A stretch of DNA of 64,000 nt from Escherichia coli (lineage in GTDB: Bacteria; Pseudomonadota; Gammaproteobacteria; Enterobacterales; Enterobacteriaceae): assembly GCF_001677475.2 (NCBI RefSeq), contig NZ_CP015229.1; one strand, written 5' to 3'. A model generated the notes under the pieces. It was not told the DNA's origin. It did not search any database and saw only the letters and a program-made list of their open reading frames with translations. The translations under genes were made by a program, and so were the position numbers. This document shows positions 2,779 through 64,000 of this stretch, piece after piece. Position 1 is the stretch's first letter, and each line of letters begins with the position of its first letter.

Positions 2779-3525
2779 TTACCAGTAATGCTCCGCTGTC
2801 ATATGGCCCGGTCGGCGACGTAAATGTTTCGTCATCTGCCGGGTCTCTTTTAGCAACTGTTGTGTATCGCGCACCATCTGTGGATTGCCGCACAGCATCA
2901 CATGGCTGGTTTCTTTATTCATCGGCAGGCCAATCGCGCTTTCCAGTTCACCACTTTCAATTAACGCCGGTATCCGCCCGGTGAGTGATCCCGCCGCCGT
3001 TTCCCGACTGACCACCGTCTGAATGCGCAGTTTCCCTTCGTAGCGTTTTTCCAGTTCTTGCATCAGTGGCAAATAGCTTAAGTCGGCGGCATAACGTGCG
3101 GCGTGAACCAGGACCAGATTTTTGAAGCGATCTAAATCTTTGCCTAGTTGCAGAATCGATAAATAAGGGCCAATCGCTGTACCGGTTGCCAGCATCCATA
3201 GCGTTTCGCAATCTGGTACTTCCTCCAGAACAAAGAAACCAGCTGCTTCGCTAACTACCTGCACTTCATCGCCCGGTTTCAGTGCCGCCAGTCGTGGGCT
3301 TAATTTGCCATCGGGGACGGTGACCAGGTAAAACTCCAGATCGGGATTATCGGGCGAGTTAACATAGGAGTAGGCGCGCTGGACGCGTTCGCCGTCGATT
3401 TCAAGGCCAAGCTTGGTGAATTGCCCGGCGGTAAACGGAAGCACGGGGGCGTGAACGGTGAGACTAAACAGGGCGTCGGTCCAGTTCTGCACTTTAGTGA
3501 CTTTGCCTGTTACCCAATCAGCCAT
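2779..3525 (-). CDS. fpr: Ferredoxin/flavodoxin-NADP+ reductase (248 aa)
   Basis: ORF 248 aa, recognised as E. coli Fpr (MADWVTGKVTKVQNWTDALFSL...). Confidence 0.92.
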   Translation of the reverse strand: MADWVTGKVTKVQNWTDALFSLTVHAPVLPFTAGQFTKLGLEIDGERVQRAYSYVNSPDNPDLEFYLVTVPDGKLSPRLAALKPGDEVQVVSEAAGFFVLEEVPDCETLWMLATGTAIGPYLSILQLGKDLDRFKNLVLVHAARYAADLSYLPLMQELEKRYEGKLRIQTVVSRETAAGSLTGRIPALIESGELESAIGLPMNKETSHVMLCGNPQMVRDTQQLLKETRQMTKHLRRRPGHMTAEHYW

Positions 3526-10811: not shown

Positions 10812-11342
10812 TTACGCTTTGTAGCTTAATTCTTCGATGGTGTGGAAATGGTTGGTATAGATGCAAATGTCGCCTGCAATATCCAACGCCTTTTCAGCAA
10901 TTTCACGGGCGCTAAGTTCAGTGTTTTCTAACAGCGCGCGCGCCGCAGCCTGGGCGTAAGGGCCGCCGGAGCCGATAGCAATAAGATCGTTTTCTGGCTG
11001 CACCACGTCACCGTTACCGGTGATGATAAGCGATGCAGTTTCATCCGCGACTGCCAGCAGTGCTTCAAGTTTGCGCAACATGCGATCGGTACGCCAGTCT
11101 TTTGCCAGCTCAACGGCGGCTTTGACCAGATGGCCCTGATGCATTTCCAGTTTGCGTTCAAACAGTTCGAACAGCGTAAAAGCATCCGCAGTACCGCCCG
11201 CAAAGCCCGCGATGACTTTGTCGTTGTACAGACGGCGGACCTTTTTCACGTTGCCTTTCATTACGGTATTGCCCAACGTGGCCTGACCATCACCAGCGAT
11301 GACCACATGGCCGTTACGGCGTACGCTTACTATAGTTGTCAC
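10812..11342 (-). CDS. hslV: ATP-dependent protease subunit HslV (176 aa)
   Basis: ORF 176 aa, N-terminal [11 protein letters not shown] with catalytic Thr2; directly upstream of hslU. Confidence 0.95.
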
Positions 11343-11434
11343 GAGCTGACCCCTTGGTTACGAATACAGAGTACAAACCCCGTACAAAAGTACGGGGCAT
11401 AATGCAATTATAGATGGGGGGGATTTTGAGGGTT

Positions 11435-13666: not shown

Positions 13667-16024
<2,358 letters not shown>

Positions 16025-16028
16025 TTAG

Positions 16029-16280
<252 letters not shown>

Positions 16281-49339: not shown

Positions 49340-49459
49340 GGCAAAAAAAAGCGGATCCTGGAGATCCGCAAAAGTTCACGTTGGCTTTAGTTATTCGAGT
49401 TGAGAAACTCTCGAAACGGGCAGTGACTTCAAGGGTTAAAAGAGGTGCCGCTCCGTTTC
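49340..49459 (-). ncRNA. oxyS: OxyS small regulatory RNA (oxidative-stress sRNA)
   Basis: Minus-strand sequence GAAACGGAGCGGCACCUCUUUUAACCCUUGAAGUCACUGCCCGUUUCGAGAG...GCGGAUCUCCAGGAUCCGCUUUUUUUUGCC matches OxyS as recalled; terminal hairpin plus U8; divergent from oxyR. Confidence 0.9.
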
Positions 49460-49554: not shown

Positions 49555-50472
49555 ATGAATATTCGTGATCTTGAGTACCTGGTGGCATTGGCCGAACACC
49601 GCCATTTTCGGCGTGCGGCAGATTCCTGCCACGTTAGCCAGCCGACGCTTAGCGGCCAAATTCGTAAGCTGGAAGATGAGCTGGGCGTGATGTTGCTGGA
49701 GCGGACCAGCCGTAAAGTGTTGTTCACCCAGGCGGGAATGCTGCTGGTGGATCAGGCGCGTACCGTGCTGCGTGAGGTGAAAGTCCTTAAAGAGATGGCA
49801 AGCCAGCAGGGCGAGACGATGTCCGGACCGCTGCATATTGGTTTGATTCCTACGGTTGGACCGTACCTGCTACCGCATATTATCCCGATGCTGCACCAGA
49901 CATTTCCAAAGCTGGAAATGTATCTGCATGAAGCACAGACCCACCAGTTACTGGCGCAACTGGACAGCGGCAAACTCGATTGCGTGATCCTCGCGCTGGT
50001 GAAAGAGAGCGAAGCATTCATTGAAGTGCCGTTGTTTGATGAGCCAATGTTGCTGGCTATCTATGAAGATCACCCGTGGGCGAACCGCGAATGCGTACCG
50101 ATGGCCGATCTGGCAGGGGAAAAACTGCTGATGCTGGAAGATGGTCACTGTTTGCGCGATCAGGCAATGGGTTTCTGTTTTGAAGCCGGGGCGGATGAAG
50201 ATACACACTTCCGCGCGACCAGCCTGGAGACGCTGCGCAACATGGTGGCGGCAGGTAGCGGGATCACTTTACTGCCAGCGCTGGCTGTGCCGCCGGAGCG
50301 CAAACGCGATGGGGTTGTTTATCTGCCGTGCATTAAGCCGGAACCACGCCGCACTATTGGCCTGGTTTATCGTCCTGGCTCACCGCTGCGCAGCCGCTAT
50401 GAGCAGCTGGCAGAGGCCATCCGCGCAAGAATGGATGGCCATTTCGATAAAGTGTTAAAACAGGCGGTTTAA
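49555..50472 (+). CDS. oxyR: LysR-family hydrogen-peroxide sensor/regulator OxyR (305 aa)
   Basis: [44 protein letters not shown]; Cys199/Cys208 region present (DGHCLRD ... FCFEAG). Confidence 0.96.
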
Positions 50473-51855
50473 ACCGTTTAACGCAGCTACCCGATAGGCT
50501 TCCGCCATGGTCGGGTAGTTAAAGGTGGTGTTGACGAAGTACTCAATAGTGTTGCCGCCACCTTTCTGTTCCATAATCGCCTGACCGATATGAATAATTT
50601 CGGCAGCGCGCTCGCCAAAGCAGTGAATACCCAGAATCTCTTTTGTTTCCCGATGGAACAAAATTTTCAGCGTGCCCACGTTCATGCCGACGATTTGTGC
50701 ACGTGCCAGATGTTTAAACTGGGCGCGGCCCACTTCATATGGCACTTTCATCGCGGTCAGCTGCTGTTCGGTTTTGCCCACAGAGCTGATTTCCGGGATG
50801 GTGTAAATGCCGGTAGGGATATCTTCAATCAGATGCGCGGTGGCTTCGCCTTTTACCAGCGCCTGCGCGGCAATGCGCCCCTGGTCATAGGCCGCTGATG
50901 CCAGGCTCGGATAACCAATCACGTCGCCCACCGCGTAAACGTGCGGCTGTGCGGTCTGATACATGCTGTTGACCTTCAGCTGTCCGCGACTGTCAGTTTC
51001 CAGCCCAATGTTCTGTAACGCCAGCGAATCGGTATTACCGGTACGACCGTTGGCATAGAGCAGGCAGTCAGCTTTCAGTTTTTTACCCGACTTCAGATGC
51101 ATGATCACACCGTCGTCACAGCCTTCGATCTTCTCGTACTCTTCGTTGTGACGAATCACTACGCCACTGTTCCAGAAGTGATAGGAGAGAGAATCTGACA
51201 TCTCTTGATCGAGAAATGCCAGCAGGCGATCGCGGGTGTTGATCAGATCCACTTTTACATCCATACCGCGGAAGATCGACGCATATTCACAGCCGATCAC
51301 TCCAGCACCATAGATAAGTACATGGCGCGGTTCGTGGTGCATGCTGAGAATTGAGTCGCTGTCGTAAATGCGTGGATGGGTGAAATCAACATCTGTTGGA
51401 TGATATGGACGAGAGCCGCAGGCAATAACAAATTTTTCAGCGGTTAGCGTTTCAACGCTGCCGTCCGGGCAATCCAGCGCCAACGTATGCTCGTCAACAA
51501 AGCGAGCGTTCCCCTGCAATATTTCACAGTGATTACGTTCGTAAAATCCCTGACGCATGCGCGTTTGTTGATTAATCACGTTATCGGCATGGTTAAGGAT
51601 ATCGGCAAAAGAAGAGCGGAGCAGTCGGGAATGGTCGCTGTATAGTGGGTTTTGATTGAATTCTATAATGCGGCTGACGGCGTGACGGAGAGCTTTCGAC
51701 GGGATGGTGCCCCAGTGGGTGCAACCGCCGCCAACATTTTGATAACGCTCGATAACTGCGACGCGCGCACCTTGCTTAACCAGGCCCATTGCAGCGCCTT
51801 CGCCGCCGGGGCCGGAACCTATTACTATGGCATCGTAATCGTAGGAATGTGGCAT
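50455..51855 (-). CDS. sthA: Soluble pyridine nucleotide transhydrogenase (466 aa)
   Basis: [28 protein letters not shown]-binding N-terminus; 3' end overlaps oxyR 3' end convergently by 18 nt. Confidence 0.95.
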
Positions 51856-52184
51856 GGTAGGGCTTACCTGTTCTTATACATAAAAGCAACAGAATGGTAA
51901 CATTTTATCGCGGGTAAGCCAATTGATCCCCGTCATTAATCTGGCTATAGCGTGAGCGGCCTTTGCTTTGTCTGCCCCCTTCTTAACCCATTTATTTACT
52001 ATTAATCGCTTTTTCTTATGGCTGATAGTTTTATCTTGCCGAAGCGTGCTTTTTTGTTATTGTCTTTATGAAATATTCTTATAAAACAAACATATAAATA
52101 TTTTATATTGATGAGTTATTTGTATTTATACCATCAATAAAATCCGTTAATTAGCCTGTTTATAAGTGAATAAAGGAATAGCCG

Positions 52185-53351
52185 ATGATCGAACACTATA
52201 TTCGAGGGTTTGAGGAAGAACTGCGTGAGATCCGCCATCAGATCCACGAAAACCCGGAGCTGGGATTACAAGAATTTAAAACCAGTGCTTTGGTGGCGGA
52301 AAAGCTGCGTCAGTGGGGCTATGAAGTAGAGCAAGGACTGGCGACGACGGGGATAGTGGCCACGTTAAAAGTGGGCGACGGAGAGAAAAGTATTGGCCTG
52401 CGGGCGGATATGGATGCGCTGCCAATTTATGAAAATAGTGGCAAGCCCTGGGCCAGTAAACATCCTGGTTTAATGCACGCCTGCGGGCATGACGGGCATA
52501 CCACCATACTGCTGGGGGCCGCGCGTTATTTTGCCGAAACCCGCCGTTTTAACGGCACGTTACGTCTTATCTTCCAGCCTGCGGAAGAGATGATTAACGG
52601 CGGTGAGATCATGGTTAAAGAGGGGCTTTTTGATCATTTCCCCTGCGATGTCATTTTCGGCATGCATAACATGCCCGGTCTGCCGGTGGGTAAGTTTTAT
52701 TTCCAGCCAGGGGAACTGATGGCGTCAATGGATCAGTTCCATATTACAGTTCGTGGTTGTGGCGGACACGGTGCGATCCCGCACAAAGCCATCGATCCGG
52801 TGCTGGTTGCCGCACATATCACCACCGCATTACAAAGCATTGTGTCGCGCAATGTCGATCCGCTGGAAGCGGCGGTAATTACCGTCGGCAGCATTGTTGC
52901 GGGTGAGGCGGCTAACGTCATTCCTGACAGTGCTGAGATGAAAATCAGCGTCCGCTCTCTTAGCCGCGATACCCGACAACTTCTTCTGACCCGTATTCCT
53001 GCTCTGGCACAAACCCAGGCTGCCAGCTTTGGTGCTACGGCTGAGGTTACGCATGTTAACGGTACACCGGTATTAGTGAATGACGAGGAGATGGCGCGCT
53101 TCGCCTGGCAGGTGGCGTGTAAAACGTTTGGTGAAGATCGGGCCGAGTTTGGCATCAAGCCCCTGATGGGCAGTGAGGATTTCTCTTTCATGCTGGAAGC
53201 CCAGCCGAAAGGCGCTTTTTTGCTGTTCGGTAATGGCGATGTCGGGGAAGGTTCCTGCATGGTGCATAACCCGGGTTACGACTTCAACGATGCAAGTCTG
53301 GTCCCGGCATGCAGCTACTGGGGCGCACTGGTAGAAGCTTGGCTGCAATAA
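52185..53351 (+). CDS. M20D-family amidohydrolase (hippurate hydrolase / N-acyl-amino-acid amidohydrolase-like), 388 aa; accessory gene not in K-12
   Basis: Metal-binding motifs typical of M20D enzymes (HACGHDGH, ...GEE...); GGAA RBS-like upstream; no paralogue recalled at this locus in K-12. Confidence 0.8.
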   Translation: MIEHYIRGFEEELREIRHQIHENPELGLQEFKTSALVAEKLRQWGYEVEQGLATTGIVATLKVGDGEKSIGLRADMDALPIYENSGKPWASKHPGLMHACGHDGHTTILLGAARYFAETRRFNGTLRLIFQPAEEMINGGEIMVKEGLFDHFPCDVIFGMHNMPGLPVGKFYFQPGELMASMDQFHITVRGCGGHGAIPHKAIDPVLVAAHITTALQSIVSRNVDPLEAAVITVGSIVAGEAANVIPDSAEMKISVRSLSRDTRQLLLTRIPALAQTQAASFGATAEVTHVNGTPVLVNDEEMARFAWQVACKTFGEDRAEFGIKPLMGSEDFSFMLEAQPKGAFLLFGNGDVGEGSCMVHNPGYDFNDASLVPACSYWGALVEAWLQ

Positions 53352-53393
53352 ATAAAACAACACACAACAACACTTTTTGGCAAGGAACATGGA

Positions 53394-54710
53394 ATGACGG
53401 CGATCGTAAATGAAACCGTGAGTGTGAAGAAAAAGCCCAGCGGTAAGCGGGTGATTTTTGCTTCGGCGTTTGGCAATGCGCTCGAATTTTTTGATTTTGG
53501 CGTTTACAACTTTTTTGTGGTCTATATCAGTACGCTTTTCTTCCCACCCAGCGCTGATCACAATGTCGCGCTGTTACTGGCATTTGCAACATTTGGCGTG
53601 AGTTTTTTTATGCGCCCGCTTGGTGGAATTATCGTCGGGGCCTGGGCCGATCGCTTCGGACGCAAACCCGCGATGGTGTTCACCATTGCCCTGATGAGCC
53701 TCGGTACACTGATGATCGGCATCGCACCGACGTATGAAACGGCGGGCTATTGGGGAACCGCGACGCTGGTGCTGGCGCGTCTAATTCAGGGCGTTGCGGC
53801 AGGAGGCGAAGTCGGTGCCTCAATGTCTTTGTTGGTTGAATCAGCTCCGGCAAATCGTCGCGGCTTTTACAGCAGTTGGTCACTGGCGACTCAAGGCCTG
53901 GCAACAACCTTTGGTGGTGTTGTCGCTTTAGGTTTAAGCGCATGGCTGCCCTTTGCGACAGGTTCAGAAACCGTAATGGCTGAATGGGGCTGGCGTGTGC
54001 CATTTTTTATTGGCGTGTTATTAGCACCTATCGGTTGCTGGTTGCGTCTGAGCCTGGAAAATGACGTACCTGAGCTAGTGCGCAATAAAAAAGCTGCTAC
54101 CAGCGAAAGCGCGTTCTCTCTGCTCCTGCAACATAAGGCGACTATCGTTAACGGCGTTTTACTCGCTATTGGTAGCACGGTCGCAACCTATATCTCCCTC
54201 TTTTATTACGGCACCTGGGCGGCGAAGTATCTGGCGATGCCTCAACATTATTCTCATGCAGCGATGTTACTGGCGGGCGTTATTACGTTTGTGGGTGCGC
54301 TGCTTGTGGGGATGTTGTGCGATTCGGTCGGGCGTAAAAAGCTGATTTTAATCTCCCGTGTGATGGTGCTGATCTGTAGCTGGCCGTCATTCTGGCTGTT
54401 GGTGAATTACCCAAGCCCTGGCATGTTGCTGACGGTGGTTTTCGTGATGGTCAGCTTTACCACGCTTGGCGGTGTGCCGGTAATGTTGCTGATCTCTGAA
54501 CTGTTGCCGAAACGGATTCGGGCATTGGGTTTTGCGCTGGTTTATAGCATTGGTGTGGCAATCTTTGGCGGTTTTGCTCAATATTTCGCTACGCAATCCA
54601 TCGTGTTGCTGGATAGTTTGACAGCTCCGGCGTGGTATTTGGGTGGAGGCACGTTGCTGTCGATGCTGGCGTTGTTGTACGTAAAAGAACCGGCCAAAGA
54701 ATTGCAGTAA
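53394..54710 (+). CDS. MFS transporter, metabolite:H+ symporter (MHS) family-like (438 aa); accessory gene not in K-12
   Basis: ~12 predicted hydrophobic helices; MFS loop motif [10 protein letters not shown]; MHS-like signatures [26 protein letters not shown] (compare ProP/KgtP/ShiA). Confidence 0.8.
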
Positions 54711-54759
54711 ATATGTTTTATTGCGTTACCGTTCATTCACAATACTGGAGCAATCCAGT

Positions 54760-55464
54760 ATGTTCATTCTCTGGTATAGTGCCAGCAGTACTTTTGGCAA
54801 GGATTCAGACATCGTGATGGGCGTAAGAGCGCAACAAAAAGAAAAAACCCGCCGTTCGCTGGTGGAAGCCGCATTTAGCCAATTAAGTGCTGAACGCAGC
54901 TTCGCCAGCCTGAGTTTGCGTGAAGTGGCGCGTGAAGCGGGCATTGCTCCCACCTCTTTTTACCGGCATTTCCGCGACGTAGACGAACTTGGTCTGACCA
55001 TGGTTGATGAGAGCGGTTTGATGCTGCGCCAACTCATGCGCCAGGCGCGTCAGCGTATTGCCAAAGGCGGGAGTGTGATCCGTACCTCGGTCTCCACATT
55101 TATGGAGTTCATCGGTAATAATCCGAACGCCTTCCGGTTATTATTGCGGGAACGCTCCGGCACTTCCGCTGCGTTTCGTGCCGCCGTTGCGCGTGAAATT
55201 CAGCACTTCATTGCGGAACTTGCGGACTATCTGGAACTCGAAAACCACATGCCTCGTGCGTTTACTGAAGCGCAAGCCGAAGCCATGGTGACGATTGTCT
55301 TCAGTGCGGGTGCCGAGGCGTTGGACGTCGGCGTCGAACAACGTCGGCAATTAGAAGAGCGACTGGTACTGCAACTGCGAATGATTTCGAAAGGGGCTTA
55401 TTACTGGTATCGCCGTGAACAAGAGAAAACCGCAACTATTCCGGGAAATGTGAAGGACGAGTAA
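54760..55464 (+). CDS. fabR: TetR-family repressor of unsaturated fatty acid synthesis FabR (234 aa by K-12 annotation; alternative ATG at 54817 gives 215 aa)
   Basis: ...[52 protein letters not shown] TetR HTH; GGAG RBS 9 nt upstream of ATG 54760. Confidence 0.88.
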
Positions 55465-56963: not shown

Positions 56964-57090
56964 GATGTATCCTGAAAAATTAAAGTACGCGGCGATTGTA
57001 GGGATTGCTCATCAGATGTCCAGATCTTGATGAATTCCTATTTGTGAGCTACGTCTGGACAGTAACTTGTTACAACCTGTAGCATCCACT

Positions 57091-57331
57091 TGCCGGTCCT
57101 GTGAGTTAATAGGGAATCCAGTGCGAATCTGGAGCTGACGCGCAGCGGTAAGGAAAGGTGCGATGATCGCGTTATGCGGACACTGCCATTCGGTGGGAAG
57201 TCATCATCTCTTAGTATCTTAGATACCCCTCCAAGCCCGAAGACCTGCCGGCCAACGTCGCATCTGGTTCTCATCATCGCGTAATATTGATGAAACCTGC
57301 GGCATCCTTCTTCTATTGTGGATGCTTTACA
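57091..57331 (+). promoter_or_regulatory. btuB 5' leader containing adenosylcobalamin riboswitch
   Basis: Leader matches the btuB riboswitch as recalled (gccggtcctgtgagttaatagggaatccagtgcgaatctggagctgacgcgcagcggtaaggaaaggtgcg...gaagacctgccggcc B12-box region). Confidence 0.85.
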
Positions 57332-60351: not shown

Positions 60352-61893
<1,542 letters not shown>

Positions 61894-61978
61894 CCTTAAA
61901 GAACTGTGCTTTGCAGTGCTCACACAGATTGTCTGATAGAAAGTGAAAAGCAAGGCGTCTTGCGAAGCAGACTGATAC

Positions 61979-62054
61979 GTCCCCTTCGTCTAGAGGCCCA
62001 GGACACCGCCCTTTCACGGCGGTAACAGGGGTTCGAATCCCCTAGGGGACGCCA
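61979..62054 (+). tRNA. gltT: tRNA-Glu (anticodon UUC) in 16S-23S spacer
   Basis: GTCCCCTTCGTCTAGAGGCCCAGGACACCGCCCTTTCACGGCGGTAACAGGGGTTCGAATCCCCTAGGGGACGCCA; cloverleaf with TTC anticodon. Confidence 0.97.
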
Positions 62055-62247
62055 CTTGCTGGTTTGTGAGTGAAAGTCACCTGCCTTAATATCTCAAAAC
62101 TCATCTTCGGGTGACGTTTGAGATATTTGCTCTTTAAAAATCTGGATCAAGCTGAAAATTGAAACACTGAACAACGAAAGTTGTTCGTGAGTCTCTCAAA
62201 TTTTCGCAACACGATGATGAATCGAAAGAAACATCTTCGGGTTGTGA

Positions 62248-64000
<1,753 letters not shown>

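Follow-up and report, generated by a model that had tools for sequence, protein, structure and literature searches.

The sthA-fabR locus and its two genes

The interval between the core genes sthA and fabR was analysed in a stretch of Escherichia coli DNA of 64,000 nucleotides (nt) (assembly GCF_001677475.2, contig NZ_CP015229.1), hereafter called the window, whose positions serve as coordinates throughout. The listing of open reading frames (ORFs) gives the gene order sthA (- strand), a 388-residue ORF (+), a 438-residue ORF (+), fabR, yijD and trmA. An earlier note on the same DNA had described ~2.9 kb between sthA and fabR with these two ORFs co-oriented and 42 nt apart, the transporter ORF downstream of the enzyme ORF, and had given sthA and fabR as adjacent genes in K-12. 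The ORF listing matches the description exactly. In K-12 MG1655, sthA is b3962 and fabR is b3963 with no gene between them, and the pair is not found at this site. Because RefSeq annotates the same two coding sequences in other strains and the ratio of nonsynonymous to synonymous divergence (dN/dS) is 0.02-0.09, the ORFs are real genes and not chance reading frames. A ribosome-binding site (RBS) of the AAGGA type precedes each of them, with AAGGA 8 nt ahead of the amidohydrolase ATG. The pair corresponds to c4924/c4925 of CFT073 and ECs4892/ECs4893 of O157 Sakai, and is a genuine accessory operon, read correctly in the earlier note and catalogued before (features in Table 1).

The first protein had been assigned to the M20D amidohydrolases, and this assignment is borne out. 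It contains the catalytic domain Peptidase_M20 (PF01546, 2.9e-44, residues 72-384) with an inserted dimerisation (lid) domain, M20_dimer (PF07687, 1.7e-12, residues 184-279), which is the architecture of the M20D group, and it scores 358.9 bits with the amidohydrolase model TIGR01891, above the curated cut-off of 153.75. The metal ligands in the M20 family are the Cys and His of HACGHD, the Glu of QPAEE, the His of GMHN and a C-terminal His. The motif HACGHDGH, also pointed out in the earlier note, was located at residues 98-105, and together with QPAEE (131), GMHN (159) and VHNP (360) it aligns column for column with YxeP and ILL2. A search of the Protein Data Bank (PDB) returned YxeP from Bacillus subtilis (1ysj) at 1.4e-70; YxeP and ILL2 from Arabidopsis (1xmb) have the same two-domain build, align over nearly the full length and carry the motifs at the same positions. 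The N-alpha-acyl-glutamine aminoacylase AgaA from Corynebacterium (6slf) and 4ewt from Staphylococcus aureus share the architecture and the motif positions and are alignable with the enzyme over almost the full length, and all four relatives score at ~1e-65 to 1e-70. The substrates after which these relatives are named differ (indole-3-acetic acid (IAA)-amino acid hydrolase homologue versus N-acyl-glutamine aminoacylase), and because the enzyme is about equally distant from all four, no specificity is transferable to it. As an M20D amidohydrolase it has hydrolysis of the amide bond of N-acyl amino acids as its predicted activity. Neither a signal peptide nor a hydrophobic segment was found in the enzyme, which argues for a cytoplasmic location, and its substrate must therefore be imported. 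With the enzyme as query, a protein search brought up E. coli and Shigella variants only, all under automatic names.

The second protein matches MFS_1 (PF07690, 3e-27) and Sugar_tr (PF00083) in Pfam. It carries the MFS motif A at residues 82-91, the second-half repeat DSVGRK at 310 and 11 hydrophobic segments above threshold, in agreement with an MFS fold of ~12 transmembrane segments. Domain searches thus placed both proteins in the families that had been claimed and not in unrelated ones. The description of the carrier as an MHS-like member of the MFS holds: MFS membership is clear from Pfam and the best NCBIfam model is that of the metabolite:H+ symporters (TIGR00883, MHS family, TC 2.A.1.6), but the score of 323.2 bits lies under the curated cut-off of 443.45. 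The second-best model, NF011656 for the citrate/tricarballylate:H+ symporter TcuC, gave 287.3 bits against a cut-off of 445. The best-scoring models are all of the MHS type, with TcuC/CitA, KgtP, ProP and ShiA among them (323, 287, 211, 205 and 185 bits), yet the transporter is below every curated cut-off although motif A and its repeat are present. It is therefore not an orthologue of any characterised MHS member.

Table 1. Features of the sthA-fabR interval; positions are those of the 64,000-nt window.
Feature	Position	Strand	Basis or remark
sthA, flanking core gene	50455..51855	-	466-aa ORF; identical in aa sequence (100%) to SthA of the K-12 type; annotated in RefSeq at homologous loci
Left end of the segment specific to Escherichia, still present in the 'empty' site of K-12	51906..51974		Left boundary approximate (51906-51925)
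Islet-specific upstream region, presumed promoter/operator	51975..52184	+	Absent from K-12; A+T 0.72
AT-rich motif within the imperfect inverted repeat 52067-52107	52078..52106	+	Candidate binding site of a regulator or of a nucleoid protein
M20D-type metal-dependent amidohydrolase, 388 aa, predicted cytoplasmic	52185..53351	+	Pfam, TIGR01891, PDB relatives, motifs, dN/dS
Intergenic spacer, 42 nt, with transporter RBS AAGGAA	53352..53393	+	Sequence; terminator scan
MHS-type MFS transporter (putative subfamily), 438 aa	53394..54710	+	Pfam MFS_1/Sugar_tr; best NCBIfam models below cut-offs
Right end of the Escherichia-specific segment, kept in the K-12 scar	54676..54732		Includes the transporter's last 33 coding nt and stop codon
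Sigma-70-like promoter match TTCACA-17-TATGTT upstream of fabR	54736..54764	+	Consensus match only; left intact by the insert
fabR, flanking core gene	54814..55464	+	PGAP start (GTG 54814); MG1655 annotation starts at 54760

An old insertion and a deletion scar in K-12

In Salmonella, Pseudescherichia vulneris and two further enterobacterial loci, sthA and fabR are direct neighbours separated by ~200-230 nt, and the insert is absent. Homology between these outgroups and the window ends at 51905-51924 and resumes at 54733-54768, and because it breaks off at these two points, ~2.8 kb of the locus are specific to Escherichia. Since Salmonella and the other enterobacteria are without the pair, it is an old insertion in the Escherichia lineage. 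The K-12 spacer, the same in MG1655 and DTU-1 and 330 nt long when measured to the fabR start of PGAP, is not of the outgroup type. Its nt 1-119 equal window positions 51856-51974, and its nt 193-330 equal positions 54676-54813 with 100% identity. K-12 accordingly keeps both ends of the insert, ~50-70 nt on the left and 57 nt on the right, and the right remnant includes the last 33 coding nt of the transporter gene with its stop codon. In alignments, the retained codons correspond to the C-terminal ends of the Burkholderia orthologues (FMKETAGRAID and LKEYAGRALD are examples), which identifies them as genuine transporter sequence and not as recruited spacer. The sthA-fabR spacer of K-12 is a deletion scar and not an empty attachment site, which matters for work on the sthA and fabR promoters in K-12, where this DNA could be taken for a native intergenic region. 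SMS-3-5 has a scar with the same junctions, differing at a few positions, and the same two-piece match was obtained for all sampled islet-negative genomes. This points to one old deletion, the allele of which has persisted beside the intact one.

The deletion junction holds 73 nt in place of the 2701-nt islet core (K-12 spacer nt 120-192; 3120-3192 of the K-12 locus L002), with a few differences in SMS-3-5. This segment had no significant match in the islet upstream region, any of the islet alleles, the outgroups or the whole window (best local score 14 against 10.5±1.7 for shuffled sequences, with 27 of 500 shuffles as good), and no match in Rfam. It may be filler DNA from the deletion or a remnant of something else. 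In the islet-negative strain IAL7254 (NZ_CM130001.1), a transposase of the IS481 family is inserted in the sthA-fabR spacer.

The stretch from sthA to fabR is whole in 1505 of 5426 complete E. coli genomes (~28%). In the inspected rows the pair occupies the same sthA-fabR site, and all but two of the places are chromosomal. Those two are on records classed as plasmids, though PLSDB holds no islet copy; the records are probably partial or wrongly assigned. O157:H7 strains, an O145 strain, CFT073 and JJ1887 are among the carriers, which include B2 and E strains; the remaining genomes, such as K-12-like DTU-1, MG1655 and SMS-3-5, match the sthA-to-fabR stretch only at its ends. A cross-species scan covered bacterial and archaeal contigs with one genome per species. 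Among the matches listed, Escherichia albertii is the only close relative, with 96% amino acid identity and the same arrangement at the same site (sthA-M20-MFS-fabR). The next-best enzyme homologues among the matches listed are those of Silvimonas (63%) and of Bordetella and Paraburkholderia (57%).

Both genes are intact in all nine alleles examined. In E. albertii NBRC 107761 a TGA stands at the position of E. coli Trp386 (L004, 7156-7158), so that the enzyme is three residues shorter and otherwise intact. Against the window allele, dN/dS is 0.035-0.085 for the enzyme and 0.016-0.057 for the transporter, and these low values indicate that both genes are functional and under strong purifying selection. 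Between the window and E. albertii, the synonymous divergence (dS) is 0.31 for the enzyme and 0.58 for the transporter, within or near the 0.25-0.57 of the flanking genes, which fits residence at this site before the split of E. coli and E. albertii. Within E. coli, the islet genes are far more divergent than their flanks; between the window and O157, dS is 0.012 for sthA and 0.27 for the transporter. The divergence is mosaic, with E. coli strains differing by as much as 17% per 150 nt in blocks of the transporter gene, and with a stretch of ~225 nt in the enzyme gene (nt ~525-750) that differs from E. albertii by 0.7-1.3% while the neighbouring blocks differ by 12-13%. Such blocky divergence indicates old allele classes that were reshuffled by recombination, partly between species. 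Vertical inheritance alone was rejected as an account of the locus, given the strongly mosaic divergence along both genes. The closest alleles in complete E. coli genomes are 97.2-97.5% identical to that of the window, and none exceeds 97.5%.

The absence of the pair from K-12 and from other enterobacterial genera, together with the betaproteobacterial character of its nearest relatives outside Escherichia, could also be read as a recent horizontal gain of a mobile genomic islet by a strain or lineage. Mobile genomic islands are recognised by mobility genes, tRNA or attachment sites, direct repeats and deviant composition. No integrase, transposase or tRNA was found among the ORFs and sites of the islet, nor direct repeats flanking it, and no copy of the pair occurs among the PLSDB plasmids. 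The GC content of the islet genes (0.52-0.54, and 0.57 at third codon positions) is like that of the flanks. With the same site occupied in E. albertii at flank-like divergence and a deletion scar in K-12, a recent gain is extremely improbable. What the earlier note calls an accessory islet is indeed absent from K-12, but it is an old segment of the Escherichia lineage deleted in K-12 and not a strain-specific acquisition.

Coupling of enzyme and transporter, and the proposed function

Among the 78 distant enzyme homologues listed, nine have a homologue of the MHS-type transporter directly downstream on the same strand (loci L007, L010, L012, L015, L019, L022, L029, L048 and L056, from Paraburkholderia, Burkholderia, Pseudomonas and others), and the transporters of these nine are 36-45% identical to that of E. 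coli. In an independent search seeded with the transporter, the closest full-length relative outside Escherichia (P0241, 54%) has an M20D gene ahead of it that shares 52% identity with the enzyme of the window. The recurrence of this gene order at such divergence argues that both proteins work on the same compound. The clusters of Burkholderia, Paraburkholderia and Pseudomonas, with the order LysR-M20-MHS, and the metagenomic contig L095 have the same order and strand as the E. coli pair; at 50-57% identity for the enzyme and 36-54% for the transporter they are its closest relatives outside Escherichia among the matches listed. They differ from it in two respects. A divergent LysR-type gene, recognised by its N-terminal sequence only, lies upstream in L007, L022, L029 and L048, whereas the E. 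coli copy has no regulator, and the E. coli copy sits between two core-gene promoters. No known substrate was found for the distant M20-MHS clusters. Within the islet, a terminator scan detected no terminator between the genes, and because the 42-nt spacer lacks one, an operon is likely; co-transcription of the enzyme and transporter genes is inferred on this basis.

Alternatively, the two genes might be independent neighbours, the transporter serving a di- or tricarboxylate (citrate- or tricarballylate-like) and the M20D enzyme acting as a housekeeping peptidase or deacylase on endogenous substrates. The TcuC/citrate type is the second-best transporter model, at 287 bits, the RefSeq name of the transporter is 'citrate-proton symporter', and most distant M20 homologues are without an adjacent MHS gene. 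The TcuC score is far under its cut-off of 445, however, and a pairing that recurs in unrelated genera at 36-57% identity, and again beside the nearest transporter homologue, is hard to explain if the proteins are uncoupled. The genes are moreover only 42 nt apart with no terminator between them. Independent functions are consequently judged unlikely.

The reading preferred here, and held to be probably correct, is that of a two-gene catabolic or scavenging operon for import and subsequent hydrolysis of an anionic amide, derived from an old insertion of betaproteobacterial type and deleted in K-12. The MHS-type MFS proton symporter would take up a small anionic amide, for which an N-acyl-L-amino acid or a similar conjugate bearing a carboxylate is the most plausible candidate. 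The cytoplasmic M20D metallo-amidohydrolase would then cleave the imported compound, and the free amino acid and carboxylic acid so released would both enter central metabolism. Import followed by hydrolysis is the most economical scheme because a cytoplasmic amidohydrolase is paired with a carrier of the proton-symporter type. With regard to its history, the betaproteobacterial-type insertion would have entered the Escherichia lineage between the divergently oriented promoters of sthA and fabR. Purifying selection would keep the operon in the ~28% of complete E. coli genomes that carry it, B2 and E strains included, and the remaining sampled genomes, K-12 and SMS-3-5 among them, would have lost it in a single ancient deletion from which both insert ends survive. 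The uptake-plus-hydrolysis module proposed in the earlier note gains strength from the M20-then-MHS order in distant genomes and beside the transporter's closest homologue outside Escherichia. The same note had held that the substrate is not to be inferred from the sequence, and indeed neither family and equivalog models nor the relatives provide a specificity. The transporter's proximity to carriers of di- and tricarboxylates, and the action of the enzyme's PDB-named relatives on amino acid conjugates, give weak hints of an anionic N-acyl amino acid.

Several points weigh against this reading. The enzyme reaches no equivalog model of NCBIfam (CpsA, 335 against 500 bits; DoeB2, 325 against 550), and the transporter falls below the MHS and TcuC cut-offs, which makes even the choice of its subfamily a best guess. 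The data show the gene families, the intact catalytic motifs, the gene pairing, the distribution, the polarity of insertion and deletion, and the selection; co-transcription, the direction of transport (import, not export), the substrate class and the mode of regulation are inferred. No demonstrated substrate was found for any close relative. The pairing occurs in a minority of the 78 distant loci, and the Silvimonas M20 homologue, the closest outside Escherichia among the matches listed, has no adjacent transporter. Lastly, the Escherichia sample consists of E. coli and E. albertii; searches with YijD relatives aimed at Escherichia fergusonii and the cryptic Escherichia clades returned only E. 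coli or more distant genera.

A more specific proposal is a dedicated system for hippurate (N-benzoylglycine), composed of a HipO-type hippuricase and an importer, which would be useful in hippurate-rich urine and would explain an enrichment in uropathogenic B2 strains. The M20D family includes the hippuricase of Campylobacter jejuni, the E. coli enzyme bears the labels 'putative hippuricase', 'hippurate hydrolase' and KEGG hipO (K01451), and urine isolates, CFT073 and JJ1887 among them, carry the pair. These labels are automatic transfers, though, and no NCBIfam equivalog supports them. At 1e-65 to 1e-70 the enzyme is about equally far from the M20D relatives in the PDB, an N-acyl-glutamine aminoacylase and an IAA-amino acid hydrolase homologue among them. 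In O157:H7, from the bovine gut, and in E. albertii the pair is fixed to the same degree, and literature searches returned no experiment on hippurate. A dedicated hippurate system is for these reasons considered improbable.

The p-aminobenzoyl-glutamate system of K-12, for a breakdown product of folate, offers a functional parallel. AbgA, AbgB and AbgT combine a dedicated importer with a cytoplasmic M20-family amidohydrolase that cleaves an N-aroyl amino acid, and this importer-plus-hydrolase logic is the same as that of the sthA-fabR pair. That the pair is a second system for p-aminobenzoyl-glutamate is suggested by the RefSeq gene name abgA in Sakai and by the COG assignment 'AbgB'. The Abg-named PDB chain, in contrast, was matched at only 3.7e-35, compared with 1e-70 for YxeP and ILL2. 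Membership in the Abg system would entail two M20 paralogues, AbgT and close similarity to Abg proteins; the sthA-fabR locus has a single M20 gene, an MFS carrier in place of AbgT, no adjacent LysR regulator and weaker similarity, and this identity is accordingly very hard to credit.

The gene names in circulation should be viewed in this light. In a synteny study of 2010, c4924 ('putative hippuricase'), c4925 ('putative citrate permease') and c4926 (yijC, now fabR) form a gene set absent from K-12, and 7 of the 18 genomes compared there were scored as carrying c4924 and c4925 (PMC2831201). In a metagenomic study, 'hipO' (K01451) is one of the genes listed as marking one E. coli clade associated with a risk of necrotizing enterocolitis (PMC4819403). 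Both genes are annotated in RefSeq wherever inspected, and the names given to the enzyme are inconsistent: 'abgA' in Sakai (ECs_4892; L094, 7885-9051), 'putative hippuricase' in CFT073 and 'hipO' in KEGG-based annotation. The labels 'hippuricase', 'abgA' and 'citrate symporter' are transfers unsupported by curated thresholds, and pointing this out is, together with the recognition of the K-12 spacer as a scar, the corrective, practical value of the present check. Literature searches found no experimental work on the substrate of the pair. The pair, already annotated and listed in the literature, is not new; what the present analysis adds is the polarity of insertion and deletion, the strength of purifying selection, the depth and mosaic structure of the alleles, and the conserved association of enzyme and transporter in Betaproteobacteria and Pseudomonas.

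The import-and-hydrolysis operon belongs with the many small accessory metabolic operons that set pathogenic or basal E. coli lineages apart from K-12. If its substrate were identified, strain-specific metabolic models would gain a nutrient, and the finding could be relevant to growth in urine or in the gut. As a speculative extension with a low probability, the operon might scavenge a conjugate of host or dietary origin that is abundant in urine or gut (hippurate or another N-acylglycine, phenylacetylglutamine, or an N-acyl-aspartate or -glutamate), giving B2 and E strains an advantage in their niches and placing the islet/deletion polymorphism itself under selection. If so, an ancient polymorphism, maintained by selection between alleles with and without the islet, would also account for the unusual depth and mosaic pattern of divergence among the alleles.

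Upstream region, expression and further features of the window

The islet-specific region upstream of the enzyme gene is 94.8% identical to its E. albertii counterpart, compared with 88-93% for the islet genes, and its AT-rich sequence contains an imperfect inverted repeat. CTTATAAAACAAATATATAAATATTTTAT, the CFT073 version of the AT-rich motif in this repeat, lies 78 nt upstream of c4924 and is listed as a match to an AT-rich motif that is enriched ahead of genes responsive to TosR (PMC5956150, Table S2). On overproduction of TosR, an AT-binding regulator of the PapB family, c4924 was up by log2 6.6 in CFT073 (PMC5956150). In O157 Sakai, ECs4893, confirmed here to be the transporter gene, was up ~4.3-fold on entry into stationary phase and clustered with RpoS-dependent and scavenging genes (PMC2241611). 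These published expression data fit a silenced but inducible promoter. In the proposed mode of regulation, the region of 72% A+T would drive the operon without a regulator of its own; it would probably be silenced by a nucleoid protein and derepressed in stationary phase or by AT-binding regulators.

A sigma-70 scan of positions 51700-55000 returned a single promoter-like match, at 54736-54764, and none in the AT-rich region. This match lies in sequence common to K-12 and partly to the outgroups. The islet is bordered by it on the fabR side and by outgroup-shared sequence on the sthA side, and both core promoters, those of sthA and fabR, seem to be preserved beside the islet. No CRP site with up to three mismatches was detected in the upstream region, no Rfam element was detected in the islet apart from one sub-threshold chance match, and the ORF listing contains no regulator gene within the islet.

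The start of fabR is ambiguous. Its reading frame opens at TTG 54721, the MG1655 annotation starts at ATG 54760 (234 residues) and PGAP at GTG 54814 (216 residues); the end of the islet given in the earlier note, 54759, abuts the MG1655 ATG. The 126 nt 3' of the transporter stop codon fold into several hairpins with a minimum free energy of -34.6 kcal/mol (z = -2.9). They include an 8-bp stem at 54742-54761, the sequence of which is fully common to K-12 and partly to the outgroups.

An Rfam scan of the whole window also identified the OxyS small RNA at 49350-49459 (-) beside oxyR, the btuB cobalamin riboswitch at 57077-57266 (+), the ClpQY (hslVU) promoter element at 11340-11397 (-), the L31 leader at 16009-16061 (+), and an rrn operon at 60352-64000 (+) with one tRNA at the position of the Sakai gltT tRNA-Glu.

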